Shown here in pieces: positions 7,470 through 60,992 of a stretch of 64,000 bases of DNA. Within the stretch, counting starts at the first letter, position 1. The number at the start of each line of letters is the position of its first letter. A model generated the notes under the pieces. The model searched no databases, was not told where the DNA came from, and saw nothing but the letters and a program-made list of their open reading frames with translations. Position numbers and translations under genes: made by a program. Source of the stretch: Escherichia phage ERS-1; the sequence record PP337211; one strand, written 5' to 3'.

Positions 7470-7484
7470 CCGGAAGAAGTAAAG
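7470..7484 (-). promoter_or_regulatory. Recurrent intergenic motif CTTTACTTCTTCCGG (coding-strand sense)
   Basis: Plus strand reads ccggaagaagtaaag; lies just upstream of the gene starting at 7448. Confidence 0.4.
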
Positions 7485-9811
7485 CGGCGTTAATTCGGCC
7501 CGGCTCGCCCGTCGCTTCCGGGCGGCTCCCCTGGCCTTCGTCTCCTCCGAACGCCGGCGACCGGCGAACTGCCCGGAACCGTGCGGCGACCCTTCCGCGT
7601 CGGGTCGTCTGGTTGTCCTTTTGGGACCCGAGGGTGAACGCTTGGGGTTGACGGTGGCGGTCGGTCGCTGTGAACCTGGCGTCACCGCTGTCGGGGATCG
7701 GCAATTGTTCGAAGGGCTCGAGGATAGCCGATTCCTGCCGCTTGTAGTCGATGTTGGCGTGTACCGTGCTGAAGTACCTGGAGCAGGTCGGGTCCTGTGC
7801 TCCCGTCTCCGGGTCCTCCTTACAGCGGGCGTTTAGGTGAGCCGGTCCGTCACGGTTACCGATGTTCGGGCGATGGGGCGTGGATGGACGGAAGCCTGTC
7901 GAGCGGGTCGCTGCGTTTCGGCTTTTGGGACGGTAACGGGTTGGGGAACGGGGCGGAGGCGTCCCGGGCCGCGTCCGCGTACCCGTAGCCCTCGTCCGGA
8001 TGGGTCGATCCGGTTGCCCGGTCCGGCCCGCGGCCTTCTCGATGTACTCCCGGCTGGCGTCCTGGCTCCGCAGATCCGCTTGTGGAGGATGACGTCGTAG
8101 TTGCGGAGGCTCGCCTCCTCCAAGCCCTCGAGTGCCCGGCGGCGACCGTCCCCCGAGCCGACACCGATGACCGGGTCCCGGCAGTCCGGGAGGTGCGGGG
8201 CGGTGCGGACGGCCTCCGCGGCGTTCTCCGTGATCGACTCCGGGAGCTTGGGGCGTTGGCTGTAGCTGTCGTGGTAGTTCTCCTGGTGCTCTGGCCGGAC
8301 GGGCGATCGCGGAGCGGCCCGCCGGGATGTCCAGGTCCGCCCCGAGCTGGCGAGCGTGCTGCTGTTGGACGCGCGGGCGTCCGCGGCCCCGTCGCGCTTG
8401 AAGCGGGGCCCGTAGTTCGCTTGCACCCGTTCCCCAGCTGCTGGCGTAGGCGACCGCCCTGCCCGCCTTCGAGCGGCACGTGTCCGGCTGCCGATGGTGG
8501 TTCTTCTGCTGGTCTCGATATGGGCGAGGCCCCGTGAATCTCGCTGAAGGACGGACCCGGAGCGCCCTGCTCTCCCGCTTCAGGATCGGCACCCCGTCAG
8601 CTGGTGTTCGACCGGGGCGTCGTTGACGATTGTTGCTGCTCTTGGGCGTGGTCGAGGAAGGCCCGTGCGGCGGAGGCGGCCTGCCTCGGTCGAGCCCGCC
8701 GTCGATTTCCCGGATGTCGTTCCGGGTGGGAGCTGGCCCTTCGCGGGATTTTCCGGTTTGCCGCCGCACCGTCTCCACCTTCTGGATGTTCGGCGGGCGG
8801 TTGCCGGGTGGGGCGAGGTCCGCGAACTGCCGGTTTGTAAGTCCGCGACCCTGGGCGATCGCCTCGCGCTTGGGCTTCGCGTTCTCCGGGTACTCGTGAG
8901 CCTCGCGCCGCTCCGCCGTCGCGGCCTTCTCCGGTCCTTGAAGCGAAGACGGCGGCGTTGTCCGAGTCCGCCGGCATCTCGACCGGTTCCGGCTTGTCGC
9001 GATCTTGAAGCTGATCGGGACTGAAGCCGTTGTGCTCCTGGGCGCGGGCGGAGACGGTGCGGAAGGGGCGCTCCTCCTCCGTCGCCCGGGCTCCCCGGTG
9101 GGTGCCCCGCCTCCCGGGCGGTCGCCGAGCGGGCCTGGAGGGAGGTCCCGCAGTCGGCGGTGCGACCCTGGCCTGTAGCGGCGGCGCTCGCGTCCCCGGA
9201 GGCCTGTGACCCCCGGCGGGCGTCTCCTCCTCGTGGTGGGCCGCGACGTCCCTTTGCGGAACCTCGCCCTCCTTCTCCAGGAAGGAGGCGACCCCGGCGT
9301 GGAGTAGCTCCAGGTTGAGGCTAGCCTGTGGGCGGGTGGAGAAGTCCCCCGCCTGCCCGCGCCGAACCAGGGCCGTGCACACGGGGTCGGATCGCGGTGG
9401 TGATCCGGTGTCGGCCGGGAACGTCTCGATGTCCGGTTGGGGCAAGTTTCTGCCGTGTCTTTTCTCTGGTATGCGTGACCGATTTTCCCGCTCGTGTCCT
9501 TGCACATGTCCGGTTGGGTAATTGGCGACTGAAGGAAGGCTCCGTGCGGACTTCTTCGTTGACGTGAATACGGGATGGACCGTCTGCCCTTGCCGTCGCC
9601 GTCCTCCGTGATCCGGGTGAATCCCGCAGGTAGCTTGAGGGCTCCCTTCTGTATCCCCGCTCCGCCGGGCACCTCCGGCGGAGGGTAGCCGCGTGCGCTC
9701 CGAGGCTCCCAGTGGCCTTGCCCTGCTTGGGCTGGCGGGCTACCGGCGGGCGTCCTGCCTTCGGCGGACTTCTGCGGCTCGTGGGCCGGGATCGCGTGGC
9801 CTTCCGGGACC

Positions 9812-10390
9812 TCACGTGGAACCGCTTGTGCCGTCCGCGGCGAAGGCGGAGCGGCACCCGCAGCCCTTCCGCTTCATGTCCTGCTGAAGCCGGAGGGCGT
9901 GGCTCGGTCCGGGCTTGTTGCTGCCCGGGCTTCGACCTGTTCCTGCCTTGGTCGTCCGTTTCGGGGCGGGATCCTGTATGTCGGGAGACGCCCGCTCCAG
10001 CCCTCGCGGCGGGGATCGGGGCGTGGCCCGGGCGGCCGTGTCGGCGCCGCGCGGGGCGCGGGCCTTCTTCTCCTCCGCGGACTTCGGAGCCTTCTGGGCC
10101 TTCGGAGGCGACGGGGCGGGGGTTGCGGTTTGTTTGCGGTTTCGACCTTCTGGGTTCGGCCTGCTCTGCCGCTCAAACTTCCGGGTGCGCTTCGGCATAA
10201 CGCGCCAGGCATCTTCTGGTGTGGGGCAATGGCGGTGGTCTTGTTGGCGAAGCGGCGCACGTTCGGACGGACTTGCCGTTGCGGAAGGTGCCGATGACTT
10301 CGTCGGACCTGCTCGACCAGGGCTGGGCCGGAGGGCTCGCTGGGAGGCTTCGGTGTAGGCGACGTTGTCGAAGTTGATGGTGTTGGCGGT
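9812..10390 (-). CDS. Hypothetical basic protein, frame-disrupted (…[14 protein letters not shown]… / …[50 protein letters not shown]…)
   Basis: AAAGGAG-like SD near 10,400 on the minus strand; frame cycles F3 to F2 to F1 to F3 (all -1); stop at 9812. Confidence 0.35.
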
Positions 10391-10454
10391 AGGCTCCTTT
10401 TCTGGGGTTGAGGTGCGATCTTGTTCGACCGTGAGAGAATCTTAACCCTGGCCC

Positions 10455-10468
10455 CCGAAGAAGTAAAG
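10455..10468 (-). promoter_or_regulatory. Recurrent intergenic motif CTTTACTTCTTCGG
   Basis: Plus strand reads ccgaagaagtaaag, about 60 nt upstream of the SD of the 9812-10390 gene. Confidence 0.4.
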
Positions 10469-12900
10469 TGGTTTGACTAACTTTTTCAGGTTCTCGGTCC
10501 GAAGGCCGGGTGCCCGTTGGACGGCGGAGGGCGAACCGTTGAGGCCTTCTTCCCTGAAGGCCCGGGCGGCGTCCCTCGTGCCCTGGTTCTCCTGTACCGG
10601 CTGGTTGCGCCCCGAGGTGTGCGGTACCCTGGCGACCTCGAAGCCCTGCGACGTCCTGGCAAACCCTTGCCGGTGGAAGTCCTGGCGCTGGGCCGGATAG
10701 CCGAAAGCCTCTGCGACGTCTCCGCCGGGTCAGGAGGATGACGTGCCGACCGCCGGTGGTGGGCCTCCACCGCGGCCGCGGGCACCCCGCGTCCCGGGCG
10801 GGCCGCTTGTCGTCCCGCTTCCGGCGCCCCGGGAAGGTGTGGAGGGTGTCGGCGCGGTCGAAGGTCTTGAGGTAGTCCTTGGCGATAGGCCCGCCTGCTT
10901 CGCCCTACGCCCTCCCGCGGAGGACCGCGGAGGGGAGCCAGGGGCCGGTCGGGTCCGTGTTAGGTCCGGCGCTGGCCGATGAGTAGGGGCTTGTTCGGTT
11001 CTTCGGGCTCCTCGCTTTCTTCTGGTGACGTTTGGTTTGAGGGCTCGCTCTGTACCGGGATGGCCCTTTGGGGTGTCCTGGTTGCGCGAAGGAGGAACCC
11101 GGCCGGTGAATCTGGGTACCGCCTTCTGTCTGTCCTTTGCACCCTCTCCGTCCGGTGGCCGGGTCGACGCGGTCCGGCTCGCCGGCTCCTCCGCCGGGGC
11201 GTCCGCTTCGGGCTCGCCGCCGTCTCTTCCTTTGCCAGGATGCCCACCGCTTCCCGCCGGGCGGAAGGTCGTGTGCCCTTCGCCCCGCCTTCCCTGGTGC
11301 TGGCTGTGTCCCAGTCTTCCCGCTGATGTCGGAGCTGCCGCCGCTCCGCTCGCCGCGGAACGACCCGCTGGGCGGCGACGGGCGGGGCGGCGACGTGTTC
11401 CTGGACGGTGACGCGGGAGGGGCCTTGCCGCGGACCCGAACGCGGTCCGTAGTCCCCCGCCTTCGCCTCGCGGGCCGCCTGAACTCGACGGCGGTGCGGT
11501 CGAAGCTGTAGGCGAGTTCGGCCGGACCGGAGCTGACGTTGTCGGGCGTGCCGACGGTCCCGGTCGGGGCGATGGAAGTGAGGTGGGAGTTGCGGATGCC
11601 GTATTTGGCGATGGCGTCCTGCGTCCTCGCGGAGGGTCTTGATGAACTGGCCCTGAAGGTACTTGTCCTTGTCGAACTTCGGGAAGGAGCCCTTGACCTT
11701 GGCGATGTGGGCGCTGCCTGGTAGGCTGCGCGTGCGCGTGTCGGTACCCTGCCTCGAAGGCGAGGAAGGCGGGCGAACCGTACGCGGCCTGGCTTCGCGC
11801 GTTGCCCTGCCGGCGATCCCGAGGCCCTTGCGGCGCTTGTCCTTGGCTTCCTGCTTCTGCTGCGGCGGGTACATCGCGCCATCAACCCGTTGCCATCGCG
11901 CGGACCACCTGCGGATGTCCTCGCGGACTGGTCCCGTCGAAGGCGTAGCGGCCCGCCCCGTCCTCTAAGATGTACTTGACCTGTTGAAGGAGCCCAGGAG
12001 GCAGGCACCGTAGGGCGGCAGGGGTTGCTCGCCGGTGGGGTTCGTGGCGGCGATGGTCTGGCGTCCTGGCGCTCGTTTGCGGTTGATCGCGTCGATTAAT
12101 GGCGTACCCGGCTCCGCCTGTCCCGTTCGTGCGATCGCGTCCTGGCGCCTGGGCGTCGCTTCGCGGGCAGGTCTGGCCCTCGAAGGTGAGGGGAACGGCT
12201 CGCCGGAGGCGATGCGGCGCTGCCTTGTCGGTGATGGCGACGGAGACGTTGAAGCTGGTTGCTTTGGGTCTGCCGAAGGAGACGGGCCGCCGCTTCTGGG
12301 CTCCCTCCGGGAGTTGGTCCAGGTCCGGCGGCTGAACGTCCTTCCCGGGTTGCTTGGCGTGAATGAACTCCTCGATGTCGGGATGGTCCGCGGATCGTTG
12401 TCCGGGCTCCGCGGCGATGGCCGGCAGGAGGCGACGGCTGGCAATCGCGTCGAAGATGTGGGTGAAGCTGATGGGGCCGGAGGAGTGGGACTGGAGCTTG
12501 CGGATCGGTCGCCGCGAGGACGGAGGGTGCTGAAGTCAGGCCGATCCCCGCCGCCCTTCCCCGGTATCGCGTGGCCGCGGCTTCCGCGGCCCGGATCGCT
12601 TGACGGAGCCTTCGCCGTCCCAAGCTGTCGTTGATCGTCCCGGAGACGTAGGTTGTATGGCGTGACCTGGCGAGTGGAGCCCGTTTGCGGACTGGATGCG
12701 GCCCGCCGGGAGGAAGCTGCGCCTGGAGGGCGTCCCGGAAGTCCGCGAAGTGCTGGTCATTGTTCCTTCAGGGCCGCGGCGATCCGGTTCGATGGCCTCG
12801 CGGAAGGACTCGCCGCTGCCGCGGTACTTCTGGGCGTGTAGTTCTTGTGAGTAGGGTACTTGAGGACCTGTTGTGAGTCTCCTGAAGGGTTGAGGGCTTT

Positions 12901-14065
12901 CTATCGTGTTGTTGCTCCTGTTCTTGGGTAGGCTGGTGAACGAGGTCGATGTGTTCCGCGGCCCGGGTAATGGCGGTGTATGCCCCTTTCCTTCCGGTCC
13001 TTCCCGTACCCCTGTCCGGGCCTGGCGGACGTTGTTCCTTCGGGAGCCCTGCGACTTGTGGACGGTGAGCGGCTGCCCGTCGAACTCCTCCGCGTCCTCC
13101 GCTCCCAAGATTCGCTTGTTGCCGTGGAAGTAGTGGGGGTGGGCGCTGACTTCGACCTTCGCGCCGTCCTCGCCTTCGATGTCCTTTACGGTCGCCGCTG
13201 TCGAAGATCGTGTCGCGGCGGACCTTCCGGCTGGCCGTTGAGGCCTGCCCGTGGTTGTTGCGGAGGTGCCGCTCGTCGCCTTCCTGGGTGGGCGTCTGTC
13301 CGCCCGAGGAGTTCCCGGGTACGTCCGTTGCTCGTGATTCTCGTGGCGTCCTGCCGGGTCAGGAGCCCTTGGCGGTGGAGGTACCATGTCCCGCAGTTCT
13401 TCGCGCTGTGGTGGCGGTGGGAATTTGTGGCTGGTCCGTAGTCGCCGGGGCGGAGGCGCGGCCCTCGCGGACCTCCTTGGAGGTCCGGAACGATCGGGTT
13501 GTCCTGGGCCTGGCGGTGAATCTCCGTGAGGATGTCGGGCTTGTTCTTGAAGAAAGGGCGCTGCCCGGCGGGAGCTGTCCGGGATCGCCTGGTGAGGATC
13601 GGTGCCGAAGCCAGGCCCTCCTCCCGCCGTCGGTTGCGGAGATTTGCGAGCGTGGCCTCGAACCAGGGGCGACTCCGCGTTGAGCTGGAAGGTCGGGCGG
13701 GCGAGGTCGATCTGCTCCGCCTTGATCGCCGCAATCGACCTTCGCGAGGGTTTCCGGGACGGGCTTGTGAAGTGAAGAGCCGCGCCCGCTCCGCTTGGAG
13801 TTCCTTCTGGTGCTGCTGCGACTTGTCCTTGGGCGTGTAGATGAGCTTGTGAATGGGTTCCGTTGGTCGCCCCGGACTTCGTGAGGACGTGAGCGGCCTT
13901 GCCGGTGTAGGCGGCGAAGTGCCGGACCGTCGACGGTCGCGGCGAGGTGTTTGGCCGGGTGGTCTTGCCGGTTCCGGCGTACCCGGCGAGCTGGAAGGCG
14001 GGCTTGTCCCGGGTCTTGAGCGATGCTGCCCGGTTGGCGCGGTCCGCCGTTGCGGACTCCGTCAT
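12901..14065 (-). CDS. SF1B DNA helicase, RecD/Dda/TraA-like, frame-disrupted
   Basis: ATG at 14065 with GGAGAA SD; helicase motifs in order: I 'AGYAGTGKTT', Ia 'AAYTGKAA', '(T)IHKLI', VI 'LTVHKSQGS', then 'YTAITRA' in the -1 frame; stop TAG at 12,901-12,903. Motif spacing matches RecD-like helicases. Confidence 0.6.
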
Positions 14066-14082
14066 GACCGTTCTCCGTTTCT

Positions 14083-14114
14083 GATGAAAAGAAGGGGGGC
14101 CCTTGAAGGCCCCC
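14083..14114 (-). terminator. Rho-independent terminator-like hairpin (7-bp G/C stem, 6-nt loop, then CUUCUUUUC tail on the minus strand)
   Basis: Plus strand 14,095-14,114 gggggcc-cttgaa-ggccccc; the minus-strand 3' side is U-rich. Sits between the upstream gene and the helicase start. Confidence 0.5.
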
Positions 14115-14129
14115 TGAAGGTACGGCCCG

Positions 14130-15440
14130 AGGGCGGGCCGTCCGGGCTGGTCCTCCCGGTGGAATCGGGTCCGGCTTGCCGCCGCCTGCGCCTGGGCTTC
14201 TTCGTCCGCGAGCCCGGAGCCTGCGAACGGGCGCGCGGGCCTCGCCCTGCTCGATCGTCGATTCGATGTTCGGCGGATGGAACCTGCGGTTGTGGGCAGG
14301 AGGTGAGCCTGCTGGGCGTTCTCGCCGTCGAAGGCGATGGCGTCCCGTTGAAGAACTGGCCCTTGTCGTTCTCGCTTGCGGTCTTGAGGCGGTAGCGGTG
14401 GGCGAACCTGCGGAGCCGGAATGCGGCGACCGTCCGGCGGAATCTGGATGGCTTGGCCTTGGTCCTTCCTGCCCTTGCACTTCTTGATCTTCGTGGAGCT
14501 GAAGGCCGGTGACCGCTTCCAGGCGTTGCCGTGGTCGTTGCGCGATGCCGGCTGGCGCAAGGTTTCGATCCTGGCTCGTCGCCGTCCGGGGTGCTGCAGC
14601 TGCCGTGCCCCGAGGACGCGGCCTTGGCGGGTTCACCAGGTCGCCGTCGACTTCGTGGATGCCCGCAAACCGCCGCCCGCATCGCGTGGGCTTCCACGCC
14701 ACGTACACGTGCCGGGTGGTCGCCGGGACGAGTGGACGCCCTTGGCCGTCCCGGCTTCGCCGGTCCCGGTGTTGGATCATGCCCTGGTGGTGCTGTCGTT
14801 CTCCTGGAGCTGCGGGCTGAGGGCCTGAGAATCTGGAGGAACGGGATGCTGTAGTCATTGCTGGTCTGGCTCTCGAAAACCCGCGCGCCCGCGTAGTGGT
14901 GCGTGCCTGGCCTCTGCGGTTGCGGTGTTCTGTTCCTTCAGCCCGAGGTCGGTGGTCTTGCTATCGGTCTTCTGGCGGTTACAGGCTCCTTCGGTTCGAT
15001 GTGAGCGGGTCGATTGGGCCCCCGGTCGAATAGCCCTGCCGTTCCTGCCGGTGTACCCGCGTCCCGCGGGGCGGTTCGGCTCGGGAGGAAGGCCCGGGGC
15101 CGTCCTCCTTCCTGGTTTGTTCTTCGATCTTGGACGTGCTGACGATGGACCCAGGTGTCGGGGGACTTCCTCGCCTTGCGTGGCCCTCGCGGACGAAAGC
15201 GGTAGGGTTGAAGGATGGACGCTGGCGTTGTCGCCGCCTCGAACTCGTCCGCGAGACGCTGGCGGTTCGCTGCCTTCTGCCCCTCGCCCTTGCCGAAGGC
15301 GACGGTGACCCGCGCTCGATCATCGCGGCGCGGCCGTTCTGCTCGAGCCGGCGAAGGCGAGCGGGGCCTTGGCCTTCGGGATGCTGGCGCGGATCGTCTC
15401 GTCGGGTTTGATCTTCTGGCGGTGGTGGTCTTGAGCTGCC
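14130..15440 (-). CDS. Hypothetical protein(s) upstream of the helicase, frame-disrupted; boundaries uncertain
   Basis: Protein-like high-GC3 segments (…NIESTIEQGEARAP…); no intact stop found before the terminator. Confidence 0.25.
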
Positions 15441-15460
15441 AAGTTGCGCCGATCTGGTCC

Positions 15461-15645
15461 TTAGTTTGTACCCTGGCGCTCCGCGATGTCGCGGAGTTCT
15501 TCGCGGGCCTTGTCGAGTTGGGCTTCGAGGTCTGCGACCTTCGACTGGGCGCCTGTTGTTCGGCCTGCTGAGCGAGTTGGTCCTGGCTTGTCGCCGGCGG
15601 TCTGAGGTTGGACATAGTCCAGGTATGCGTTTTCACTTGAGGCAT
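15461..15645 (-). CDS. Small coiled-coil protein (MPQVKTHTWTMSNL… / …KVADLEAQLDKAREELRDIAERQGTN*), one frame shift
   Basis: GGAGAA SD 6 nt upstream of ATG at 15,645; stop TAA at 15,461-15,463; two motif copies upstream. Confidence 0.45.
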
Positions 15646-15684
15646 GTGGTTCTCCGTTTCTTCGGTAGAGGGGTATCCCAATTG

Positions 15685-15721
15685 CTGAAGAAGTATAGCC
15701 GGTTGTTCGGAAGAAGTAAAG
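15685..15721 (-). promoter_or_regulatory. Tandem pair of the recurrent motif (CTTTACTTCTTCCG … CTATACTTCTTCAG)
   Basis: Plus strand ctgaagaagtatag (15,685-15,698) and cggaagaagtaaag (15,708-15,721), 40-80 nt upstream of the 15,645 start. Confidence 0.45.
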
Positions 15722-17105
15722 AGGCCCAGGCGTCCACCGCGATGTAGCGTTGGTCCTTGCCGCTCCCTTAGCAGGGACGTCCCGTCGTTGGCGTCCGCGG
15801 CGATGGCGACGGCGAACCGATTGGGTACCGGATCGCCCGAGGCGAGGTGGTCCCCCGGCCCGAAGTCGGCCCGCTTTCTCCTCGGGCCGGTCATTCGGCT
15901 CCGGGCGGAAGGGGCCGCGGTCGGGCGGCGGGCACCGGCCTTCCCCAACTCCTCCGCCGGCGAGGTTGAATTTGGGCTCGAACCGCTGCTCGTCGCGGTC
16001 CCTGCGGTGTTGGTCTGTACAAATACACGGCTCGGGGTAGTCGTCACAACCTGTCTTTGAGGCGGTCGCCGGTGATCTGGCTCGCCCGTCCAATTCGTTT
16101 CGGCTTTCCCCTTCCCTTCCCCGGAGTCCTGCGCCCAGGTCGATGCACCTGCCCGTTGTTGGTCTGTCCGATCCGGTGGGCGCGGTCCTCCGACTGGAGG
16201 CGGTCGTTTGGCTTGAAGCTGTTGGAATAATAAAATGACCTGCTCTGGCTGTGGTCGGGTGCCGGTGCTGCGTCGCCCCCGCCGCGGGGTTGCCCTTTAG
16301 CCTCGCGGGCCCGCTCCTCCGGCGGACGGCCTCGCGCCCTGGACCCTGCCCGTTGTGGGCAGCGGGCGCTCGCCCTGGAACCGGGCCTCGGCGTCCGCCC
16401 GCTCGTCGTTCGTTTCCTGCCCTGCGGCGGACCGCGCCGACGCCGCGCTCGCGGAGGGCGTCCATTTGGTGATGTCCGCTTCTGGAACCGGGCCCGGTCA
16501 TCGCCTTGCGCCGGACTCCGACGGTTCCGGGGTGTCGGTGACGGCTCGGCCCCGGGATTGTGTACCCGGGTTCCGCTTCGTCGTCGGTCGGGAGGTAGCT
16601 GGCGTGATCTGCTGGAGGCGGAGGAGCCGGGTGATGGCGAGGGCGGCGATGACCGGGGCGGTGCCCTCCGCGCCCTGTCGGGGCGTCTCCTGGTCGGTGG
16701 GTAGACGAAGCCGTTGAAATTTTTTACCGCCGTTTGCCCGGTGCCGGGCGTCCGGCGACGGCTCCGCGGCGACCGCTTCCGCGTCCCGAAACCCGGCCCG
16801 TTCCGCCCTGTCGATGACCTGTTGGTGCTGGTGAGAACCTGCTTGCCCTGCTCCGGTCGTCGGGAGAACCGCTTGCTGGACCTGCTTCGGCGGGAGGTCG
16901 AGCACCCTTCCTTCGTGACCTGGGAGGAGACGGGCTGGAGGAGGCTGTTCGGGTGTCCAGGCGGCGATAGCCCTCTGCGTCGGGTCTGTTGCCGTCGTTC
17001 TTCTTGGTCTTGGGGTTGAAGGCGGTCGGGTTCTGCTTCTTCCAGATGCCGAAGTGCTGCTTGAACTCCGTGAGGTCCCTGCTGGTCTCGTTCCGTAGTT
17101 GTTGG

Positions 17106-17700: not shown

Positions 17701-18060
17701 TGATGCCCGGAAGTATAGCCCGCTGGGCGGCGAAGGCGAGCGGAGAATCGGGTGCGCTTGGGACGGGGCCCTGGCGCTCACTTCGTGTGCTGAAGAAGTA
17801 TGAAGTGGAGTAAGCGTGGAAGCCCTGCGGGCTGGGGGTTTATATTCTTCTTCTTCTTCTCTTAACTCACTCAACTACTTACCTTAAACCCCGCACGGCC
17901 TCCGAAACCTAGCAAACGGTCGTGTCGCCTCCCTGGTGGGGTCCCGGCGATTTATCGGGCGAAGTAGAACTGAACTGGAGAAGTGAAGTAACCTAGCGGG
18001 AGGGTCGGAGCTGTTACGGCGCTGGGCTTTCCATGGCGCTTGGGGTCTACTTCTTCGGGC
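17700..18060. promoter_or_regulatory. Intergenic region dense in TACTTCTTC-type motifs (both orientations) with a (CTT)n microsatellite at 17,843-17,863
   Basis: ggctatacttccgg, cttcatacttcttcag, gaagtagaac, gaagtgaagtaacc, ctacttcttcggg; lower GC; no coherent coding frame. Confidence 0.45.
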
Positions 18061-36320: not shown

Positions 36321-36325
36321 GATGA

Positions 36326-48552: not shown

Positions 48553-48583
48553 CTTTACTTCTTCGGACTCTATCACTTCTTTG
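48553..48583 (+). promoter_or_regulatory. Recurrent motif pair CTTTACTTCTTCGG … CTATCACTTCTTTG
   Basis: Begins 10 nt after the stop at 48,541-48,543; same two-part layout as at 15,685-15,721 and 57,883-57,918. Confidence 0.45.
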
Positions 48584-48801
48584 CCAGTTTGAGAAATGAA
48601 CTGGTCCGGCCAGGTCGCGATTCGAGATTGGAAAGGAGCTGACCCTTAAATTAGGAAGAAGCCTTCCGCTGGTGCGGCTTCCCGATCCCGCGCGGTGGGG
48701 GTCCTGGTAAGTTGGGCGAGGACTCGCTGCGCGAAGCCCGTTGCGATTCGAGTTTGAAGTCGGTTCGCCTTCGGGCTATGCGTGGACGCTGACGAGGTTG
48801 T

Positions 48802-49060: not shown

Positions 49061-49302
49061 CCGCTTCACTCAGCGGTTGTTGCCTTTGGGGTGGCTGAGG
49101 AGAACCCCGGGGCCGTCGGTTTTCGGGACCGGCCTCAAGACGCCATCGCCTCCTCCTCCGCGAGGGCTGCGCATCCCTTCACGCTGGGAGTGCAAGCTGG
49201 AGTTCGGCATCAAGCGGATCGCGTCCGGGTCGATGACTTCAACGTGGTCACGATGAACAACCGCCGTCTGGGCTTCACCACGGAGGTCGGCAAGACCTGG
49301 AA

Positions 49303-50406: not shown

Positions 50407-53400
50407 GCAAGCGCGAGGCGGAGGACGCCCGCCCCTCCTTGGGCGACCTCCTCCGTCGTTGCACGGCCTCGGCTAGGCACCTCCGAGGAGCCCGACTATG
50501 ACAAGGAGCCCGATCAGAAACCGCTGCCGATCTTCGCCCTCGCCCTGCTGCCCCTCGCCCGCTCGCGGTCCGGAGGACCGCCCCCGCAGAACGCCGGGAG
50601 ACGGTCCGGCGTGCGGGTTGGCGGCTCCTCGCCTCGCCTCGCCCCTCCGTCCCGGGTCCTCCCGGCGGAGGTCGGGGCGAAGCCGGACCCGGCCCGCTTC
50701 GAGCGGCTGGAGTGCTGCCGCGACCCGCCCGACCCCTGGGTGCCGTATCGTTTGCGAACCTCGGAGAAGGGGTCAGAAGATGGAAAACCGGAAGAATTAC
50801 CCGCCTGGGCTGACGAAACCTTCGGCAGTGAAGCACCCGGTGGAAGTCGCCGCCGCGGATGAACGTGGAGGTGGCGGAGCTGGTCGCTGGCCTTGCCACC
50901 GTCGCCGCCGTCCCGGTCGGAGGATGGACCCGGAGCTGGTCCGGGAACTCCGGAAGGAGTGCGCGGACGTGTTCGGTTGCTCGCCCGTCGCGGAGAAGCT
51001 GGACGTGGACCTTTGGGTCTGTGGTGAACTTAGGGATGGGGGTGCACCGCTGCTGGGCTGGACCCGGAGCCCGTCCGGAAGATGTGCGTGGAAACCTTCC
51101 TGGACCCCGGAAGCGGGCTGAAATGGAGCTGGAAGGTTGACCTTCCCCTGCGACTCGGGGCTCTTTGCTGGGCTTCCACTCCGCCGACGTAGCCCTGAAC
51201 TGGGTCGGTCCGCGGCAGGGGATCGCCGCCGAGCGGAGGACGCCGTGGTGCCGACCTTCCGGCCGGGGCTTCTTCGAGGGCCTGACGGGCGTGAAGGTTG
51301 TACCTGGGCCGCGAGCTGCGCGCCTTCTGGAAAGCCGGACCCTGTGCGAAGGAGAACCTGGGACGTCACGATGGCGGGTGTCCAGGCCCGCCTCGGGCGC
51401 AACCCGGAGGACCCCCGCAAGTACCAGGTGACGGTCCTGGTGTATAGCCAGTTTGCCCCGGCCTGAGCCTCCACGGACATTGACCTGGCCAGTGCGCGAG
51501 CCAGCACCCCTTCCAGCCGATCGGGACGGCGGAGCCGCTTGCGCGGAGTACCTGGGGAGAAGTACGGCGACAACGACCCCGCGGCGGCCTCCCGGGATGC
51601 GGTCCGCGCCTTCGGGAGGAGTGCCGCTTGATGGCGGAACTCGCCCGCGACGTACCCGGAGAAGCTGAAGCGCCTCGAAGCCGACGTGGCCAAGCTGTCC
51701 GGTCAGAACCCGGCCCGCCGCGCCGCCTGCGCCACCCGTGGATCCCCGCGGAGAAGCTGCTGCCCGCGGGAAGTCGCGTGGCTGAATCAGCGCCTCGGGA
51801 ACTCGGAGGGCCTGCTGTGACGGACCTGGACGAAGCGGCCCTGGCCGTTCTGTTCGAGGAGTAACCGGTACGCTTTCCGGTCGCGGACTGGGAGGAGTTC
51901 CTGGTCATTGCCCGGGCGTCCTCGCCTCGGAGCGGGTCCGCTGCCGGTCGGCGCTGGGAGTATTTTGTGGAGGACTACCTGGAAGCCGATCTGCGCCGCC
52001 TTCTCCTCGCCGGCGGTTGTCGTTTGCATCGCCCGCCTGGCGATCCCGGGACCGCGACCGCTCCGCTGAAGGAACTCCCGTGGTGGAGACGCCGGGCGCT
52101 GCTCGCCCTCCTCCCGAAGCCGGATGACGAGGGTCCTGATCCGGGGCGGGAGAGGTTGATGATCGAGAGAATGGCACCCGGGCGGCGGTTTTTCGGCAAC
52201 CTACGCCCTGAAGAGGGCGAGGAGGCTGCGCGGGTGCTTGGGCCGCGGCCTTCGAGGCGATTGCCCTGATCCCCTCCGCGAAGCCGGAGGAGGTCCTGGG
52301 TTACCTGGACCTGCGCGTATGGGCGTCCCACCGCGGATGAAGTTCTGACGGTACCCGGTCGCCCGCCGGGTGGAGTTCCGCCGGGCTCGCCTCGCGCGTG
52401 CCCTTCGCGGAGATTCAACGCCAAACCGCCCGCGGGGCCTTCGAGGACTGACCATGATACGCTTTGACAAGTCGAAGCCTACGTGGGCGACTTCCTGAGC
52501 GAACTCCGCGGGACGGGGCCTGGGCGGAACATCGTGAAGGACTCGCCCGCCCAGCTCGGCCCTACCCGGAGCGGGCGCTGTGGACCGGGAGGCGGCTCGC
52601 CTTCCTGGGCGAGCCCGGGACTACCGCCTGGAGCTGCGCCGGATCGAAGGCGGGCACTGGGAGGCGATCCGCGAGGAGCGCGACCCGGACCGCTTCAACC
52701 TGCTGATGAGTCGACCTCGCGTAAGGAGGGCGACGCCATGAAACCAAGACTGAAGCGTAGCGCCCCAAACGGGATGCAGGAGCCGGAAGGCGCAGCGGGT
52801 GCCGCCGGTGAACCTTGACGCGGCGATCGCGGGGCCTCCGCCTTCTCGCCTTCGCCCTGTTCCGTCCGGGCTGTCGTGGAGGCTATCGTGGACCTGCGCG
52901 TAGACGGCCCGGTGTCCGACGGCGACGGCTCCGCGGCGACCTCCTGGGAGGAGCTGGAGCGGTCCTGGGGAGGAGACGGTGGAAGGTATGAGGGCCGGAA
53001 CTTGAAGGAGAACCGGGCTGGGAGCTGTGCTGGCATCGTCCCGGAGGTTCCCTTTGTTGGAAGAGGTGACGGGCTACGCCCGCGCCTGCCCTGGAGGCCA
53101 GAATTCCGTTTCGGGATGCGGGGTACCGAAGGAGTGAGAGATGGATCGGAGCGAGTTCTGAGCTGGCTGCGGAGCCTGTTCGGCGGACGCCCGCCGCCCC
53201 GCCGCCGGAGTCGGACTGATCGCCTGGCCCGGATGATGGCCCCGGGCTTCGAACCTTGGCTGCCCCTACCCGGAGAACTTCCCCTTGGAACTTATCGAAC
53301 TGTGGGGGCGTGGTGAAAAATGATTCGACCGGTGACCTTCTCTGGGCGACCGCCTGGGGTTCGGAGTCGCCCGCCTGGTGCACCCGCCCTCCGGCGGAGG

Positions 53401-53809
53401 CACTGCCTTGTGGCTAAGGTCGAAAACCACCGCCAGTCCTTCCGGATGTCGCGGAATGGCCGTGGCCAGTCCAGTTTGCCCCTGGGCGCGCCTGGTCGCC
53501 CCGCGTCGCCGCCTGGCCCCGCGGCATCGTCCTGATCCAGGAGCGGACGCGACCCCTGCCCCGGCGGCGAACTGCCGAAGGCAGCTGCCCGACTTCTTCA
53601 CCGACCTGAAGCCGGAGAACTTCGGCCTGATCGACGGTGGTGGCGGTGCGGCATACGCCCTCCGCCTCGCCTCCTCGAACCTGGTTGGGGAAGGCGAAGA
53701 TGAAGAAGGTGAAGAAGGACGAATGGCGACTGCCTGACAAGATCCATGCCCGATGGGAACGGAGCTGGGGCGGAAGTGTTGAGGCGACGGCACGCCGCTG
53801 CTGAGTTCG

Positions 53810-54260
53810 GTGATCCGGGCAGGCGCGGCCGACTTCGCGGACGCGATGCGCCTGGAAGTGGAGAAGAAGCGGGCGGAGGGCCGGCGGTTGGACGATCTTA
53901 CCCGGTGCCGGCTGGATTCCCTCGCGGTGATGCTGCTGGATCGCCTGGAGAAGGGCGACCCCGTGGACGGTGCCTTCGCCGGCGCCGCAGACCTACCGCG
54001 GCGACGGAGCGGACGGGTGGGCCCTCCGTCCTCGGGGCGACCTTCCGCGAATGGCTGGATCTCCGCCTGGAGGCCCGGGACATCGTTGCCTCAACCTCCA
54101 AGCCGCTTGGAAGGCCGCGGCCCGGATCGCGGAGCTGGAGGGGATCGCCGGACGCCTCGAAGGCGAGCGCAACGAGGCCCGCCGGTCGCTGGAGGAGGAG
54201 CGGGAGGTGTTCGGGCAGGAGCTGGAGGCGGAGCGGACGCCCGCCGCCGGTCGGAGCTGA
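53810..54260 (+). CDS. Hypothetical protein(s) with a coiled-coil segment (…DFADAMRLEVEKKRAEGRRLDDLTRCRLDSLAVMLLDRLEKGDP… / …AARIAELEGIAGRLEGERNEARRSLEEEREVFGQELEAER…)
   Basis: Two high-GC3 segments in frames offset by -1. Confidence 0.3.
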
Positions 54261-54712
54261 ACCTGGCCCGTGCCGGAGGGGTTCACCGCGTGACGGAAGG
54301 CGAACCGCCGCTGCCGGGAGTGCGGGCGAGGTCGGCGCAGCGGGTCGGAGGTCGGCCGGGCGGTACCGGATCGCCGCGGACCGCGCCTTGACCTGGGCGA
54401 ACCCCGCGACCCCTATCAATTCCGCCGATGGCCCGCCGGAAACCCCGCCGCGGGGAGTACGTCTGCCGCGGGGCCTATCCGGTTCCCGCACCGCTTCGCA
54501 GGCGGTCGCTGCTCGGGCTACTTCATCGCCGTGGAGCAGCGGAGTTGGCACTAGGGGACCGGCGACTGCCGCCTACTGTAACTGCCTCAACCGGACGGAG
54601 GCCGTGCCCACTGCGAAGTGGTGGAGGGCGGCGAGTCGGTCCAGGAATGCCCCGTGTGGCAAGAGTTTGTACGATTCAATGAGATCAAACTGAAGAAGGA
54701 GAAGTGAGATGA

Positions 54713-55030
54713 GTGATGACAACACGATGGACAGGCGTGATGATCGACCTGGAGACGATGGCGACCGGCCCCAGCGCCGGGGTCGTTTGTCGGGGCCATC
54801 CGTCGTTCAACTGCCGAACCGGATTGGTGAAGCCGGACCTGTTCGAGGTGGACGTGGACCTTCACGCCGACGCTGGGCGGCGAGGTCGATGCTTCCGGCG
54901 GTCGGTCTGGCGGGACCAGGTGGACCCTGCCCAGCGCTGGCCGAAGGCGATGCGCTCCGCGCTGACCGACCTCGCCCTCCTGGTCGGGGTACCCGGACCG
55001 AAGCGGGTCTGGGCCGGGGCTGTCCTTTGA
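54713..55030 (+). CDS. Small protein with N-terminal 'GVMIDLET' motif; possible RNase H-like or DEDD-type nuclease (speculative)
   Basis: GAAGGAG SD upstream of ATG 54,709 / GTG 54,713; uninterrupted high-GC3 frame to TGA about 55,028; the 'IDLET' Asp-x-Glu resembles exonuclease motif I. Confidence 0.3.
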   Translation: MMTTRWTGVMIDLETMATGPSAGVVCRGHPSFNCRTGLVKPDLFEVDVDLHADAGRRGRCFRRSVWRDQVDPAQRWPKAMRSALTDLALLVGVPGPKRVWAGAVL

Positions 55031-57244
55031 CGTTGCCATCTAGGGTTACTATCGCCGGCGGGCGTCCCGATCCCCTGGCATACTCCGCGCTGATGCTGAC
55101 ACCCGAACCGTGTATGACCTGGCGAAGGAGCGGGGCTGGTCGAAGCCGGAGGGGGAACGGGGCCGTTCTGCCGCCTGGAGGACTGCCGCTGCCGTACCCT
55201 TGCCGTCCATCAGCGCCCTGAACGTCCTCCGGGGCAGCCTGAAGGAGAACCCGGTAATTGGCTGACGAATCGACTTGAAGGATGGAATTCCCTTCCCCCC
55301 TTGCGGACCGCGAAGTGGCCCGGATCGCGGAGGAGGCGGCGACACACCGCCCGGGAGCCGGCGACTGTGACCTGTGTGGCGAATGGAGCGGGAGGCTGGT
55401 GGAGGAGTCTGTGCGCCCTGTCGGACCGCCCGGGCTTTGCCGGTGAATCGAAGAAGTTGTATGAGGGCTCTACTTCTTGCAGGCCCCCCGCCACTCTCCT
55501 TCGTTGCAGGTACCGGCCTGAAAATGGAGAACGGCGATGACCTGGATTTCCGCCTCCAACCCGACACCCGCGCCACTGCCCCGCTTCGTGGCCGGTTTCA
55601 CTGTCCTCGCCTCTGGCGGTAGCCCTCCGCGACCCTCGGCTACGCCTTCAGCCGCTAGAGCGTGGTTCCTGGCCTGGTCCGGCGACTCTGCATGGCATGC
55701 TGGAGGATGTACCGTGAAGGACGTGTACTGGAACCTGGCCCACTACCCCCGTCTGGAAGGCTCGGGTGCCCCCGCCCTCGCCCTCCGAAGTTCCTGGCGT
55801 CATCCCCGACCGTCGCCCGAATTGAAGCCCTGGGTGGAGTTCCGCGCCCCGAAGGCTGCGCCGGTGGTGAAGGCGGGAGCGCTTCTGCCAGGGGCGCCGG
55901 GTGCCCGCCCCGCGCCCGGGCTGGCCAGTCCTGATGGAGCTGGCAAGCCCTGGTCCGCCGCTGCTCCATGGTCCAGCCCCGCGAAAGTCCGGTCGGCGTA
56001 GGAAGGACGGAACCGATCCTCGCCGGCGAGCGCCTGGGCTCGCCGCGGGCCTTCGACCACCACCCGGGTTGAAGGAGCCCGCGTGTATCTGGAAGGATGA
56101 GCCGCCGCTGGAGGGAAAGGCCCGAGGAAGATGGAAGCGAGTACCAGAAGCGGGAGGGCTCCGGCCCTCCCCCCCGCGGGTCGAAAAAAGTTGTCTGCTG
56201 GGCTGACCTTCTTCGGGTTGGGTCACTTTTTGTTAGGCCGTAGAAATGGAGAACTGAAATCAGCCGACTCCCGCCCAGGTCGCTGCCCGCGAACTGATCG
56301 CAGGCTGGGGCTCGCCTCGCTGGGCGATGTCCGGGTTGTCAAGCCGCTGACCCTCCCGGCCGGAGTACCTCCGCGGCCCGCTCCTTCGCCGGTGACCGCG
56401 CGATCCGCCGGATCGGTGCCGGTCCTCCGCGGGACGTCCCCCTGGCAGCTGATCGGCTTCGGACCTCGCGGAGGTCGCCGGGCCCTCTGGAAGTCGGCTG
56501 CCGTTGACCGGGAGGGCCTGGCTCTCCCCCTCCCGGAGAAGGAGCCCCTTGTGAACCGGTGGCCGCCTTCCCCACCCCCTCCCCTCGTCCCCACTCCTGT
56601 TCATCGGAGTCGGGGAGCTGGGGCTGCTCTTCACCCTCCGCGAGACGGAGCTGAAGGCCGTCCCGGGTCCTGGCCCACGGACGCGGTGGTGAATGGCGTG
56701 TATCGGGGTCCTCCGAGGTCCGTGCTCCCGTGAAGAACCTGAGCCGGGACCGACGAAGCCTTCGAGAAGGCCCGGAAGCCTCTGCAGCGTATGGGCCGAG
56801 CCGGTGACCTCCCGCGACTCCCTGCGCGAGGAAATGAACGCGATTCACCGCGTGACGCTGCGGAGCTGGAGCGCCGGGAGCGCGAGCGGAAGGAGCGCGA
56901 GGACCGCCTGGGCCGCGGAACGGGCCGCGGAGGAGGAGGAGAAGCGCCTGTACCTTCCTGGGCTGGAAGTTTGCCTTCGGACCTACGCGTGGCGAGTTCC
57001 CAGGCCCCGCGGGCTGGCCTCCGCCGGTCGATCCAGCCTCCGGACTTCGAGGAAGGTGGCCTGATGCGCCTGACCGCCCGTGAGGTCGCCCGCCGGGTCC
57101 CTGTCCTCGCCCGCCGAAGCCGAAGCCCGACCTGTACGTGGGCGAGCCGAGAGTGCATCACCTTCGACGTGACCGTGGTGCGCCGTACCCTTGCGCCCGT
57201 GACGCCTGGAACGGCTACGGTATCGAGACGGTCCAGGCGTTGCG

Positions 57245-57603
57245 ATGATCGACCGCGCGACCGGGGCCTGCCTCGTGTCCAAGTCCGGGGCCTTCTACGC
57301 GGAGGAAGGCGAGGAGCTGAAGATCAAGGCCACCGTGAAGGAGCACGCGGAGCACCGCGGCCAGGCCCAGACCGTTGTCCAGCGGGTCGCGGTGCTGGAG
57401 GACTACCGGATGCGCCGGGAACCTCTCAGCTCGCGGTTGTTCGGAGGGCGAGCTGTACGCCGCCTGCACCAGGACCCCCTCACCGGGGCTCTTACGCAGT
57501 GGCCTTTGCCGGAGCCCTCGGGGAGGCCCGGCCGTCGCCCTCGTTGACTGGACTCGCTGAAGTGGACGGGTCACCTGCCCGGGCTTACCGCGTGGGTGAT
57601 TAA
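57245..57603 (+). CDS. Hypothetical protein (MIDRATGACLVSKSGAFYAEEGEELKIKATVKEHAEHRGQAQTVVQRVAVLEDYRMRRE…)
   Basis: ORF 57245..57547; long high-GC3 segment; 3' end uncertain. Confidence 0.4.
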
Positions 57604-57876
57604 GCTTCGCGCTTGGCGGACGCCCTCGTGCGATCCTTCGGAGCTGACCGGGCGTTCCGCGCGTCGGGCGATGAGTTCGCCGTTATGGGTGATAGCCGTG
57701 AACGTCTGCCCGGGCTCGCTTCTCCGCGCGAGGGTCCGGGTTTCTGCTTCGGACGGGGATCGGAGGCGGCGGAGGCGGACGGCGACCTGGCGCGTCGAGG
57801 GGCGGAGGGGGAGCGGTCCGGCCTTCGGGGCCGCGCGAGGGCTCCTCGACCGCCTTGGGGTCGATCATCGACCTCC

Positions 57877-57918
57877 GGGGGGCTTTACTTCTTCGGAGGC
57901 CCCCCGTCACACTTCTTT
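57877..57918 (+). promoter_or_regulatory. Recurrent motif inside a G6/C6 hairpin (GGGGGG-CTTTACTTCTTCGGAGG-CCCCCC), followed by CACACTTCTTTG
   Basis: Stem 57,877-57,882 / 57,900-57,905 with a 17-nt loop carrying the motif; could be a terminator, a promoter element, or both. Confidence 0.4.
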
Positions 57919-58106
57919 GTCGGGCGGTCCGGACCCGGAGAACGGCTGCCGGGGCGGCTGGGCATTTACTGTCTCCCCTGTCCAGGCCACGGACCTGCGC
58001 CTCCAAAGTTCTCCCGACCTTCTTTCGGGCGTGACTTCCTCCGGGTCCAAACGGCCCTGGACCGCCTCCTTAGATGGCGGAGGAGTAGGACGGTGCGCAC
58101 TGGTTC

Positions 58107-58360
58107 ATGTACAAGCTGTCCAACGGTGCGACTGACCTGGCCCCGGCGATCACCGACCGGAAGCTGCGACTGACCGTGGACACCAACGGCTACGGGCGAG
58201 GTCAGCGGAGACGCCGCGGGCCTGATCGCCTGCCTGTTCGTGTCAACGCCCTCGCTGGAATACCCGCAGCGCCAGGACTACGTGGACCTGTCTACAAGCC
58301 GCGCGACTTCGCCTTCGACCGCCGCAGGCTGAGGAAATCACCGCTGCCTTCGACCTGATA
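58107..58360 (+). CDS. Hypothetical protein (MYKLSNGATDLAPAITDRKLRLTVDTNGYG / EVSGDAAGLIACLFVSTPSLEYPQRQDYVDL…)
   Basis: ATG at 58,107; two high-GC3 segments separated by a -1 shift. Confidence 0.35.
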
Positions 58361-60896
58361 CCCTCGGCGCAGCCGACCGCCCCAACTTCCCGGCAAGGAG
58401 CAGATGACCGGTAGACCGCCCCCGGACCAAACCTCCTGCAGGAGACTTTCGTTGGTGTCGCCCCTGACGTGACCGCCCGCCGCGTCCGTCCTGGGCGACT
58501 TCAGGTGCGCCTCGGCGACCGAGTCGATGCCGGCTTCCGTCCTTCGCCCCGGGCGGAAGTCGGACCCGGCGACCCTGAGCTGGAACCCGTTGGCCCGTTC
58601 ACGCTGAAATGGCGACCCCGCAGGGCCTGCACATCCCGGCCGAGGTCCGGCTGGAACATCGCCTTGCCCGCCACTTCGACCGCCTGCTTACGATGGTCGG
58701 TGGACCCCCTCTGTAAGGTAGAAAAGGAGCCCGCGATGGCTGGGCGAGCCACCGCCGTTGGGAGAACCCTCCGTCACCTCCGCGACTGCGCGGAGCCGCG
58801 CACCCCCTGGGCGGATCCGGAAGCCCGCGCCCGGGCGTCCTCCTCCAACTCGCCGTGGAGGCGGCTGGAGGAGGTCGGGTGACGATCACCGCCGCGAGCT
58901 GGACGAAGCCCGAGCAACGCGGGAGGTGAGTGATGAGCGGACGCTACAAGGTCCTGGCCGGGTCCCAGTGCCCGGCCACCGCCGCTCGACTACACCGTGG
59001 TGGATGTCCGGAGCCTTTGCCCGCGGGCGCCTCGGGTGCCGTCGATGCGACTGCGAGACGTTTGGCGAGGAGGAAGCCCTGCGGTTGCCCGCGCCCGAAC
59101 GCGGCGATCGGCGAGTTGAAGTGTACCCTCGCCCGGGCCGCTCGCCTGTTCGAGGAGGCCCTGCCGAAGTCGTGCTGGGCGCCAGCGCCCTGGACGCCGG
59201 CGTGATCCGCTGCTTGGTCAGGTCCCGGCGAAGTCCGCGCGGCCCTGAAGGCTTGCGCCCTTGTGCGGAGGGGAAGTGCCCCGTACGGCCCCGAACCGCC
59301 CCTGGGCGAAGGAGGGCGGAGCATCACCCCCGGGCGCTGACGCCCTGATCCTGAGTTCGTGTCGACCTGGGCGGCTAGGGGTCAAGCGGCTGAAGGACCG
59401 CCGGGCGAAGATCGCCGGCTGTTCGCCCCGGGACGGACGGAAGGCGACCGCCTGGCCCTGTACGTCGCCGGGCGGGCGACCCTCCCGCTTCGACGCGGCC
59501 CGCTGCGCCGGTACGCGCCCGCCGCCCGTTGGACCTCTGCCGCGTGACGACCTAGGTAACGGCTCCGCCCGCGTGGTGCCGAAGTCGTAACGAGACCGGA
59601 GAAGGAGAAGCGGCGAAGCGGGGAATCTACCGCGGCCCGATCCCTGCCCGATTCGGCAGACCTGCGCTGCTGCGCGAGGCGACCCGGCCATGCTCGTGGC
59701 GGTTCGATGACGGAGCCTGACCCGGAGCGGCGACCCGATCCCGGCGGAGAAGCCCGAAGGCCCGCCCGCGGACGCCCTGGGCTACGGCTCGCGCCTTCCC
59801 GGCGGAGGACTTCGAGGAGAACCGGACCTGCCCGACCTGCGAGGCGACCGGCTTTCGGCGGCTCGCGCCGGGTCCTGACCGCTGTACCTTCTGCGACGGG
59901 ACGGCAAGGCGGGAACCCGCCGGAGGAGGACGGCGAGGCTGCCGGGGTGCCCCGCCCGACCGCCCGCGCGCGGTCGGTGACCTCCTCCGTGGGCATGACC
60001 CGCGACGGCTACCGGCTCGCCGGGTGGTTGTCGAGTGCGAGGACGGCGCTGTGGCGAACTCCGCCAGGAACGAAGCCGGGACTGATCCTGGGTCCGGCTC
60101 CCGGTGATCCCGGGAGGTGAACGATGTCCCTGGCTGAGTTCGAGGACCGCGTGGCGGATCCCCTGCCTCATCGTGGTCACCACCGGGAGCCCTGACGTGC
60201 CCGCGAAGTGCTGCGGCCCGCCTGAAGATCGCTACCCGGCGGAAGGCGGATGCGGTGAATGGGAAGTCCGCGACCGCCGCGGACGCCCGCCCCCTGGCCT
60301 GGAGCGGGGTATGACGGAGGCGGAGCGCGAAGCGGTTGACCTGGCCGTGTTCGATCCGTGCGGAGGACCGGCGATGACCTGCGTGCGCGTCCCCGGGGGT
60401 CGCTTGCCGTCGCCCTCTTCCGGCTCCGCCTCGCGGACGGCTCCTGCGCGTCGGAGCCCTGCCACCTGCGGGCTGCCTCTTCCGCGACCGGCGGCTGGCG
60501 TCTTCACACGAGTGGTGGAGGACCCCTGCGATCTGCGCCGCCCTGGACTGGTCCTTCAACGAGGAAAACGGGCCGACCGCCCTCGCCGCGGGATGCCCCG
60601 CCGGGTGGTCCCGCGGTGCCGACTGGTCGAGTCGGAGGCCGAAGGCTGCGGAAAACCGGCGGGCTCCCCCTCCTTCTCCCTTCCACCGGGTGCGCTTGGG
60701 TTACGGGAGTGCGCTTGGGTTCGGCTCCAAAAGTATGAAGGGGTGCGTGGCGGGAAGTTGTAGCCGTCTGGGGTTCCTGCCTTGCGCTTAGGTTACTTGG
60801 GATTCTTACCTGAAACAAATTTGCCCAGGGTTGACCCGGCGGACCGGCCTGAGAATCCTTGTTGAGGCTTCCGGCTGTCCGAGGGCTTCCTGGGGC

Positions 60897-60943
60897 TAAG
60901 GTAAGTAAGTTAAGTAAGTTAAGTATCTATCTATCTATCTATC
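60897..60943. repeat. Compound microsatellite (TAAGT/TAAGTTAAG)n followed by (ATCT)5
   Basis: ctaaggtaagtaagttaagtaagttaagtatctatctatctatctata, in an AT-rich intergenic stretch upstream of the packaging-like operon. Confidence 0.7.
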
Positions 60944-60974
60944 TATAAAGGGCTGTTTTATATGGCCTTTTTGC

Positions 60975-60992
60975 CCGCTTGACTTTTTACTT
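60975..60992 (+). promoter_or_regulatory. Degenerate copy of the recurrent motif (CTTTTTACTTTTTCGG)
   Basis: Sequence similarity to CTTTACTTCTTCGG; about 240 nt upstream of the 61,229 start. Confidence 0.3.

Follow-up and report, generated by a model that had tools for sequence, protein, structure and literature searches.

The 64,000-nucleotide (nt) stretch of Escherichia phage ERS-1 analysed here (record PP337211; hereafter the window) carries repeated copies of one AT-rich intergenic motif, CTTTACTTCTTCGG. What does this motif do? The initial annotation, made from the sequence alone, had proposed either an element-specific promoter or a terminator/antiterminator site. Our analysis indicates that the motif is very probably the -35-like half of a phage-specific promoter found in the Yuavirus/Vojvodinavirus lineage (subfamily Rabinowitzvirinae). 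For the YuA phage group this element has already been described in GenBank annotation, and a 2024 study that mapped transcription start sites (PMC10914365) backs it.

The motif does recur, far more often than chance would allow. Eight matches to CTTTACTTCTTCGG with up to two mismatches were counted in the window, while dinucleotide-preserving shuffles gave 0.22 on average and never reached eight; for its core TACTTCTTC there are eight exact matches where 0.10 would be expected. Copies were found where the initial annotation had placed them, to within a few bases. One position given as 60,975 is actually 60,985, where the motif takes the variant form TTTTACTTTTTCGG also seen at YuA 33,251, and the list had overlooked a full orthologous copy near 55,468(+), which is degraded and reads CTCTACTTCTTGCAGG. 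Indels break the open reading frames (ORFs) of the window, so intergenic location was judged by orthology to YuA. On this basis the copies fall in stretches orthologous to intergenic DNA, and the copy at 15680..15721 overlaps the last codons of the gp03 orthologue. The motif had been described as always in gene-sense orientation; this holds for seven of the eight copies, while the one at 18,045 lies on the strand opposite to all neighbouring genes.

The window is assigned to the genus Yuavirus (Pseudomonas phage YuA/M6 group) by megablast and by collinearity. With positions 15,000-22,000 as query, 63 phage records matched over the full length at about 81-82% identity, namely 53 Pseudomonas, 9 Bordetella and 1 Sphaerotilus phage, and those listed were of the YuA/M6/PAE1 type, including PAC6 and PAE1. 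The YuA gene order from gp02 to gp77 (NC_010116) matches that of the window by tblastn and blastn.

In the clean YuA genome, a bipartite element has CTTTACTTCTTCGG as its left half and reads CTTTACTTCTTCGG-N8-CACTATACTTCTTC. Scanning revealed six full sites, at 2877, 7722, 10500, 22639, 29058 and 31098, all on the + strand, which is the coding strand. Their left halves begin 49-107 nt upstream of the ATG of gp04, gp08, gp12, gp28, gp42 and gp45. Five sites are non-coding; the sixth (2877) extends into gp03, whose last codons share sequence with its left half. In the YuA record, five repeats of 28 bp, which read CTTTACTTCTTCGG-N8-CACTATAC followed by TTCTT, are labelled 'putative sigma70 promoter requiring phage-encoded cofactor'. 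The YuA repeats and the window element have the same sequence, orientation and intergenic positions at the six genes just named, and nothing of substance differs between them; read errors have corrupted most of the second halves in the window. GenBank does not include the site upstream of gp04 among its five repeats, yet YuA, PAC6, FP1 and the window all carry a full copy there. Equal frequency in coding DNA and on the antisense strand, which the initial annotation had named as the result that would speak against it, was not observed: YuA has 11 exact TACTTCTTC hits, 10 of them within its non-coding DNA, which makes up 6.5% of the genome, and nine are in sense orientation. Both antisense hits belong to the large regulatory intergenic regions gp01-gp02 and gp49-gp50.

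The full element reads [C/G]TTTACTTCTTCGG-N8(9)-C[A/T]CTATACTTCTTC, with TTTACT and TATACT 17 (once 18) bp apart. A sigma-70 pattern scan returned TTTACT-17-TATACT, with 9 of 12 matches, at YuA 22640, 29059 and 31099 and at window position 15,720. Each hexamer is followed by TCTTC, which makes CTWTACTTCTTC a direct repeat that recurs in the two halves at a spacing of 23 bp. Conservation extends beyond the hexamers, over seven positions after the -35-like one and five to six after the -10-like one. These outside bases are invariant across two genera with different hosts, whereas the eight bases between the halves vary freely. The 'second part' with which the motif had been reported to pair is the -10-like right half of a single element; the copies at 15,685 and 48,570, previously counted as independent, are both this second half.

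Such an arrangement suggests how the element may work. The spacing of TTTACT and TATACT is that of sites which host RNA polymerase recognizes through a sigma-70-type factor. On the coding strand, the element lies 49-115 nt upstream of the start codons of genes for DNA metabolism, hypermodification and host interaction. The host polymerase would initiate there only with the help of a putative phage-encoded factor, and this factor would read the conserved non-hexamer bases, TCTTCGG after the -35-like and TCTTC after the -10-like hexamer.

Published work on YuA supports a promoter. According to PMC10914365, ONT-cappable-seq of YuA-infected cells showed that nine promoter regions, or transcription start sites, share one highly conserved motif (MEME E = 2.7e-26). 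The same study states that four such promoters had been reported previously, that they had no in vivo activity without infection, and that YuA does not encode an RNA polymerase. Given the GenBank annotation and the mention of earlier repeats in that study, we strongly infer that its motif is the one described here. The promoter half of the initial proposal thus agrees with both the YuA record and the start-site mapping.

Several observations weigh against this interpretation. The numbers do not tally: PMC10914365 gives four 'previously reported' sites where GenBank annotates five repeats, and it maps nine start sites where our scan has six full sites. The study also describes its YuA motif with the words 'not resemble bacterial promoters'; in the consensus scan, by contrast, the element scores 9 of 12 as sigma-70-like. 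Most second halves in the window are degraded, and the bipartite form is directly visible there at one site only. Among 20 YuA proteins of unknown function scanned against Pfam, no sigma factor or known polymerase-binding protein was found; apart from Nmad5 and families without known function, the scan returned only gp25, a protein with a tandem helix-turn-helix (HTH). It is the only DNA-binding candidate of the set, and no evidence ties it to the motif.

We then consider the window copies themselves. Gapped alignment assigns to each of the six full YuA sites an orthologous copy in the window, always on the gene strand (table 1). The left half has no or one mismatch at five of them, being exact upstream of gp08, gp28 and gp45 and carrying one mismatch upstream of gp12; the sixth, at 55,468, is degraded. 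The right half, C[A/T]CTATAC(TTCTTC), lies 8-9 bp past the left half and is intact only at 15,685-15,698, in the copy upstream of the gp04 orthologue. A corrupted remnant is left at the other five: it reads TTAAGATTCTCTC for CACTATACTTCTTTC upstream of gp08 and GTCACACTTCTTTG upstream of gp45, is degraded upstream of gp12, and upstream of gp28 was previously noted as 'CTATCACTTCTT', which represents the -10-like half CACTATACTTCTTC altered by deletions and miscalls. This corruption follows a CA-specific miscall pattern, and the right half is present in clean YuA, FP1 and PAC6. A weight-matrix scan, which the initial annotation had suggested as a check, recovered just three window sites with 50 rigid columns built from 13 clean sites, because read errors shift the register, and orthology mapping by gapped alignment was used in its place. 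The comparison with related phages, also suggested there, showed the same element at orthologous sites in YuA and PAC6 and full sites in FP1 as well.

How far does the element extend beyond Yuavirus? Seven full sites, all in sense orientation and with left halves starting 49-115 nt upstream of start codons, occur in Bordetella phage FP1 (Vojvodinavirus), whose terminase-portal region shares about 79% identity with that of YuA. In the first 50 kb of Pseudomonas phage Ab18 (Abidjanvirus, of the sister subfamily Bradleyvirinae), CTTTACTTCTTCGG was absent at up to three mismatches except for chance-like coding hits. Ab18 carries instead a repeated promoter-like CTTGCCTTTTGCC which is followed after about 13 bp by AGAAT (seen by eye), upstream of ORF03, ORF08 (twice), ORF24, ORF30 and ORF33 in the region 2,440-26,000. 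Like the YuA element, the Ab18 repeats are intergenic, lie upstream of replication and early-region genes on the same strand of a collinear genome, are bipartite and have a T-rich extension after the first hexamer; they differ in sequence, with CTTGCCTTTTGCC in place of CTTTACTTCTTCGG. The motif thus appears lineage-specific and common to phages of different host genera, which fits recognition by a phage component without proving it. Scanning IMG/VR with the 14-mer alone was uninformative, giving more than 120 single, apparently chance, matches. The bipartite pattern returned 10 stretches there, some on contigs of about 60 kb. Contigs of 59.8-61.6 kb carry CTTTACTTCTTC-N12-CTATAC, and these are probably further members of the lineage.

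We also compared the element with known promoter classes. Canonical sigma-70 promoters share its hexamers TTTACT and TATACT, 17 bp apart and 9 of 12 to consensus. Unlike them, the YuA sites are inactive in uninfected cells, as PMC10914365 reports, and carry conserved positions beyond the hexamers that sigma-70 recognition does not explain. Middle promoters of phage T4 combine a MotA box with a sigma-70 -10 element and are read via sigma appropriation by MotA/AsiA. The concept would be shared, in that a host sigma-70 holoenzyme is redirected by one or more phage proteins to sites with a good -10 and a distinctive upstream element. The sequences are unrelated, and here the upstream element sits at the normal -35 and includes a -35-like hexamer, whereas that of T4 is at -30. 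No MotA/AsiA homologue was seen among the 20 YuA proteins scanned, and the requirement for a factor is in our case a deduction. Promoters of T7 or phiKMV/LUZ19-type single-subunit polymerases are likewise compact, conserved, strand-specific repeats upstream of gene blocks, but they are contiguous over about 20 bp and not split into -35 and -10 parts. The sigma-54 class, which YuA uses for late genes, does not match either, as the motif has no GG/GC pair at the required spacing. With one mismatch allowed, the sigma-54 consensus (TGGCAC-N5-TTGC at -24/-12) was not found anywhere in the window, for which read errors may be the cause.

A further possibility is that the element is no plain sigma-70 promoter. 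The two direct copies of CTWTACTTCTTC, 23 bp apart, might be read by a putative phage specificity factor, or the element might be active only on phage DNA that contains 5-hydroxymethyl-deoxyuridine (5-hydroxymethyl-dU) or hypermodified thymidine. We put this forward tentatively and regard it as rather unlikely.

Could the sites be ordinary host sigma-70 promoters that need no phage factor, their extra conserved bases reflecting common ancestry or selection for strength or for a discriminator? The hexamer score would allow this, and at several sites an A-rich stretch (AAAAAAGTTG or AAAATAATTTG) resembling an UP element lies about 10-20 nt upstream. However, the four sites described in PMC10914365 were silent in uninfected cells, the YuA record states that a phage cofactor is required, and the non-hexamer bases stay invariant across two genera and their hosts while the 8-bp spacer core is free to change. 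We therefore judge this explanation unlikely.

An alternative that overlaps with a phage-specific promoter is that the 12-mers are operators, bound as direct repeats by a phage repressor or activator such as gp25, which would turn the transcription units on or off, with promoter function confined to the hexamers. The 23-bp register of the CTWTACTTCTTC repeats is suggestive here. YuA gp25 is a protein of 108 residues annotated as 'putative repressor', with two HTH units (HTH_31, E = 2.5e-9, and a weaker N-terminal HTH). It is 77% identical in FP1, and an orthologue fragment is present in the window. Against this, nothing connects gp25 to the motif, a 108-residue monomer is unlikely to span two sites 23 bp apart, and a homologue with 41% identity also occurs in Ab18, which lacks the motif; comparison across YuA, FP1 and Ab18 does not discriminate. 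We consider the operator explanation improbable.

The other half of the initial proposal, a terminator or antiterminator acting at the RNA level, was rejected. Some copies do follow directly after stop codons, G-runs and C-runs flank the first half at YuA 29058 and 31098 and at window position 57,883, and CTTCGG could form a UUCG-type loop. Yet RNAalifold found no conserved pair over 13 aligned sites from two genera, complementarity of the flanks is limited to a minority of sites, no terminator-like pattern was called at the motif copies, and no terminator annotated in YuA coincides with one. Such a function is very improbable. That the motif is a sequencing artefact, made of adapter remnants or systematic miscalls, is practically out of the question despite the nanopore barcodes, adapter and heavy systematic errors of the window, since the motif stands at the same orthologous positions in the clean, independently sequenced genomes of YuA, PAC6 and FP1 and is unlike the adapter and barcode sequences at 42,708-43,339.

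We characterized these errors further. Region 42,708-43,339 contains Oxford Nanopore native-barcode flanks, four barcodes (08-like, 03, 02 and 07-like) and an adapter bottom strand, matched to what we take to be the reference barcode and adapter sequences. The window is thus not a clean genome but joins four reads of a multiplexed run, two of them long and two resembling adapter dimers. Its parts 1-42,700 and 43,340-64,000 represent opposite strands of the same type of phage genome, and two YuA intervals, 17,375-18,345 and about 33,740-36,370, occur in duplicate, with the copies inverted relative to each other. Where aligned, these duplicates are only 69-75% identical, which indicates an error of about 15% per copy. 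Compared with YuA, the window aligns at about 77-87% identity with about 6-9% gap columns. Protein identities (tblastn) are typically 35-50%, with a full range of 32-95%, so that nearly every gene is frameshifted.

Miscalls affect about 15-20% of bases and are concentrated at CA, the complement of TG. The substitutions are strand-asymmetric in the same way in both parts, although these are opposite genome strands. On the + strand of the window, a reference A is kept in 59% and 67% of cases in the two parts; after C the share falls to 19% in the first part and 31% in the second, compared with 87-88% after G. The loss at CA corresponds to a TG-specific miscall on the strand that passed through the pore, and the TC context (GA on the window strand) appears unaffected. 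T in the TG context makes up 32.3% of all T in YuA. This is close to the value for phage M6, in which about 30% of thymidines are replaced by 5-(2-aminoethyl)-dU (5-NedU) (PMC5889632), and restriction data indicate TG/TC contexts for modification (PMC6449724). TG-specific miscalling fits this known thymidine hypermodification. It also accounts for the state of the motif copies: the left half lacks CA on both strands and survives, and copies of the right half CACTATAC that lie on the + strand are corrupted. The background GC content, previously given as 70%, is indeed high in the window, at 68.1%, but this value is inflated by the CA-specific miscalls, which also produce an AT skew of about -0.4; the clean genomes of YuA and FP1 have 64.3% and 64.2%.

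A group of copies had also been reported as a cluster at 17,700-18,060. It comprises two sense half-sites and one antisense half-site in a large regulatory intergenic region and contains no full bipartite site. The sense half-site GGCTATACTTCCGG lies about 30 nt ahead of the helicase start codon in YuA. The antisense copy at 18,045 owes its likeness to the left half to a TA deletion and a CA-to-CG miscall in the window, and its YuA counterpart is flanked by the inverted boxes GCGCTTGGG and CCCAAGCGC. The variant at 60985..60998 has no -10-like second half at the usual spacing. Window regions 17,700-18,100 and 60,690-61,000 are paralogous regulatory intergenic regions, corresponding to gp01-gp02 and gp49-gp50 in YuA. 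Both have the core of an annotated sigma-70 early promoter, CTTAGGTTACTT, a (CTT)n or (TATC)n microsatellite, repeated GCGCTTGGG boxes and an antisense motif copy. The 26-mer AAGGTAAGTAAGTTAAGTAAGTTAAG is likewise found in both, exact at 60,898-60,923 and degraded near 17,862-17,889 (-).

Gene calling based on GC content at third codon positions yielded no usable genes in the window because indel errors occupy about 7% of alignment columns, and gene positions were transferred from YuA by tblastn and blastn in its place. Frameshifted orthologues of the YuA thymidine-hypermodification cluster lie at about 2,900-9,450 (-) by tblastn. Its members include gp17 (dU hydroxymethyltransferase-like), gp13 (kinase), gp12, gp11 and gp10. 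The annotation of gp12 is 'DNA repair photolyase' and that of gp11 'threonine dehydratase'; we regard them as the radical-SAM enzyme and the pyridoxal phosphate (PLP)-dependent enzyme of this cluster, respectively. YuA gp15 matches Pfam Nmad5, a nucleotide-modification-associated domain. Two motif promoters, those directly upstream of gp08 and gp12, lie within the hypermodification cluster.

Table 1. Position and strand of motif copies, orthologous gene blocks and read-joining sequences in the window.
Feature	Window position	Strand	Counterpart or basis
Full bipartite promoter, best preserved, CTTTACTTCTTCCG-N9-CTATACTTCTTCAG	15680..15721	-	orthologous to YuA 2877-2913
Promoter copy upstream of gp08	10427..10468	-	orthologous to YuA 7722-7749
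Promoter copy upstream of gp12	7445..7484	-	orthologous to YuA 10500-10527
Promoter copy upstream of gp28	48553..48594	+	orthologous to YuA 22639-22666
Promoter copy upstream of gp42, degraded, CTCTACTTCTTGCAGG...CCACTCTCCTTCG	55468..55505	+	orthologous to YuA 29058-29085
Promoter copy upstream of gp45 (annotated anti-restriction protein)	57883..57925	+	orthologous to YuA 31098-31125
CTTTACTTCTTCGG matches, up to two mismatches	7471-7484, 10455-10468, 15685-15698, 15708-15721	-	window scan
CTTTACTTCTTCGG matches, up to two mismatches	18045-18058, 48553-48566, 57883-57896, 60985-60998	+	window scan
Variant TTTTACTTTTTCGG, preceded by CGCTTGAC	60985..60998	+	identical to YuA 33251-33264
Sense half-site CATACTTCTTCAGC, -10 type, in large regulatory region upstream of helicase (gp02 orthologue)	17792..17803	-	YuA 713-726
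Sense half-site GGCTATACTTCCGG	17707..17720	-	YuA 798-811; read directly from sequence
Antisense half-site, window form GTCTACTTCTTCGG	18045..18058	+	reads CTATACTTCTTCAG in YuA and PAC6
Degraded antisense copy, gp49-gp50 regulatory region	~60726..60740 (approximate)	-	orthologous to YuA 32982-32995(-), CTTTACTTCTTCGA
YuA gp21 to gp02 orthologues	337-17,677	-	tblastn
YuA gp77 to gp52 orthologues	18,517-40,091	-	tblastn
YuA gp23 to gp51 orthologues	44,918-63,191	+	tblastn
gp25 orthologue fragment	45,882-46,019	+	tblastn
Barcode 02, exact 24-mer	43,234-43,257; reverse complement 43,051-43,074	both	
Barcode 03	within 42,708-43,339	both	
Adapter bottom strand	43,000-43,021		
Barcode-08-like sequence	end of first part		
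Barcode-07-like sequence, then CAGCACCT	directly before start of second part at 43,340		
Inverted duplicate pair	112-897 with 43,382-44,191		copies 75% identical
Inverted duplicate pair	40,037-42,336 with 61,454-63,770		copies 69% identical

Taken as concatenated barcoded nanopore reads with strand-specific miscalls, the window is unsuitable as a genome sequence. The initial annotation picked a real regulatory motif from the raw letters and interpreted it correctly, but there is little news in the element itself. If a specificity factor or modified DNA were indeed needed, the silence of the element on unmodified plasmid DNA would be explained, and the motif swap in Ab18 would mark lineage-specific co-evolution of promoter and factor. 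The direct-repeat architecture of the element, its conservation in FP1 and its replacement in Abidjanvirus narrow what such a factor must recognize.

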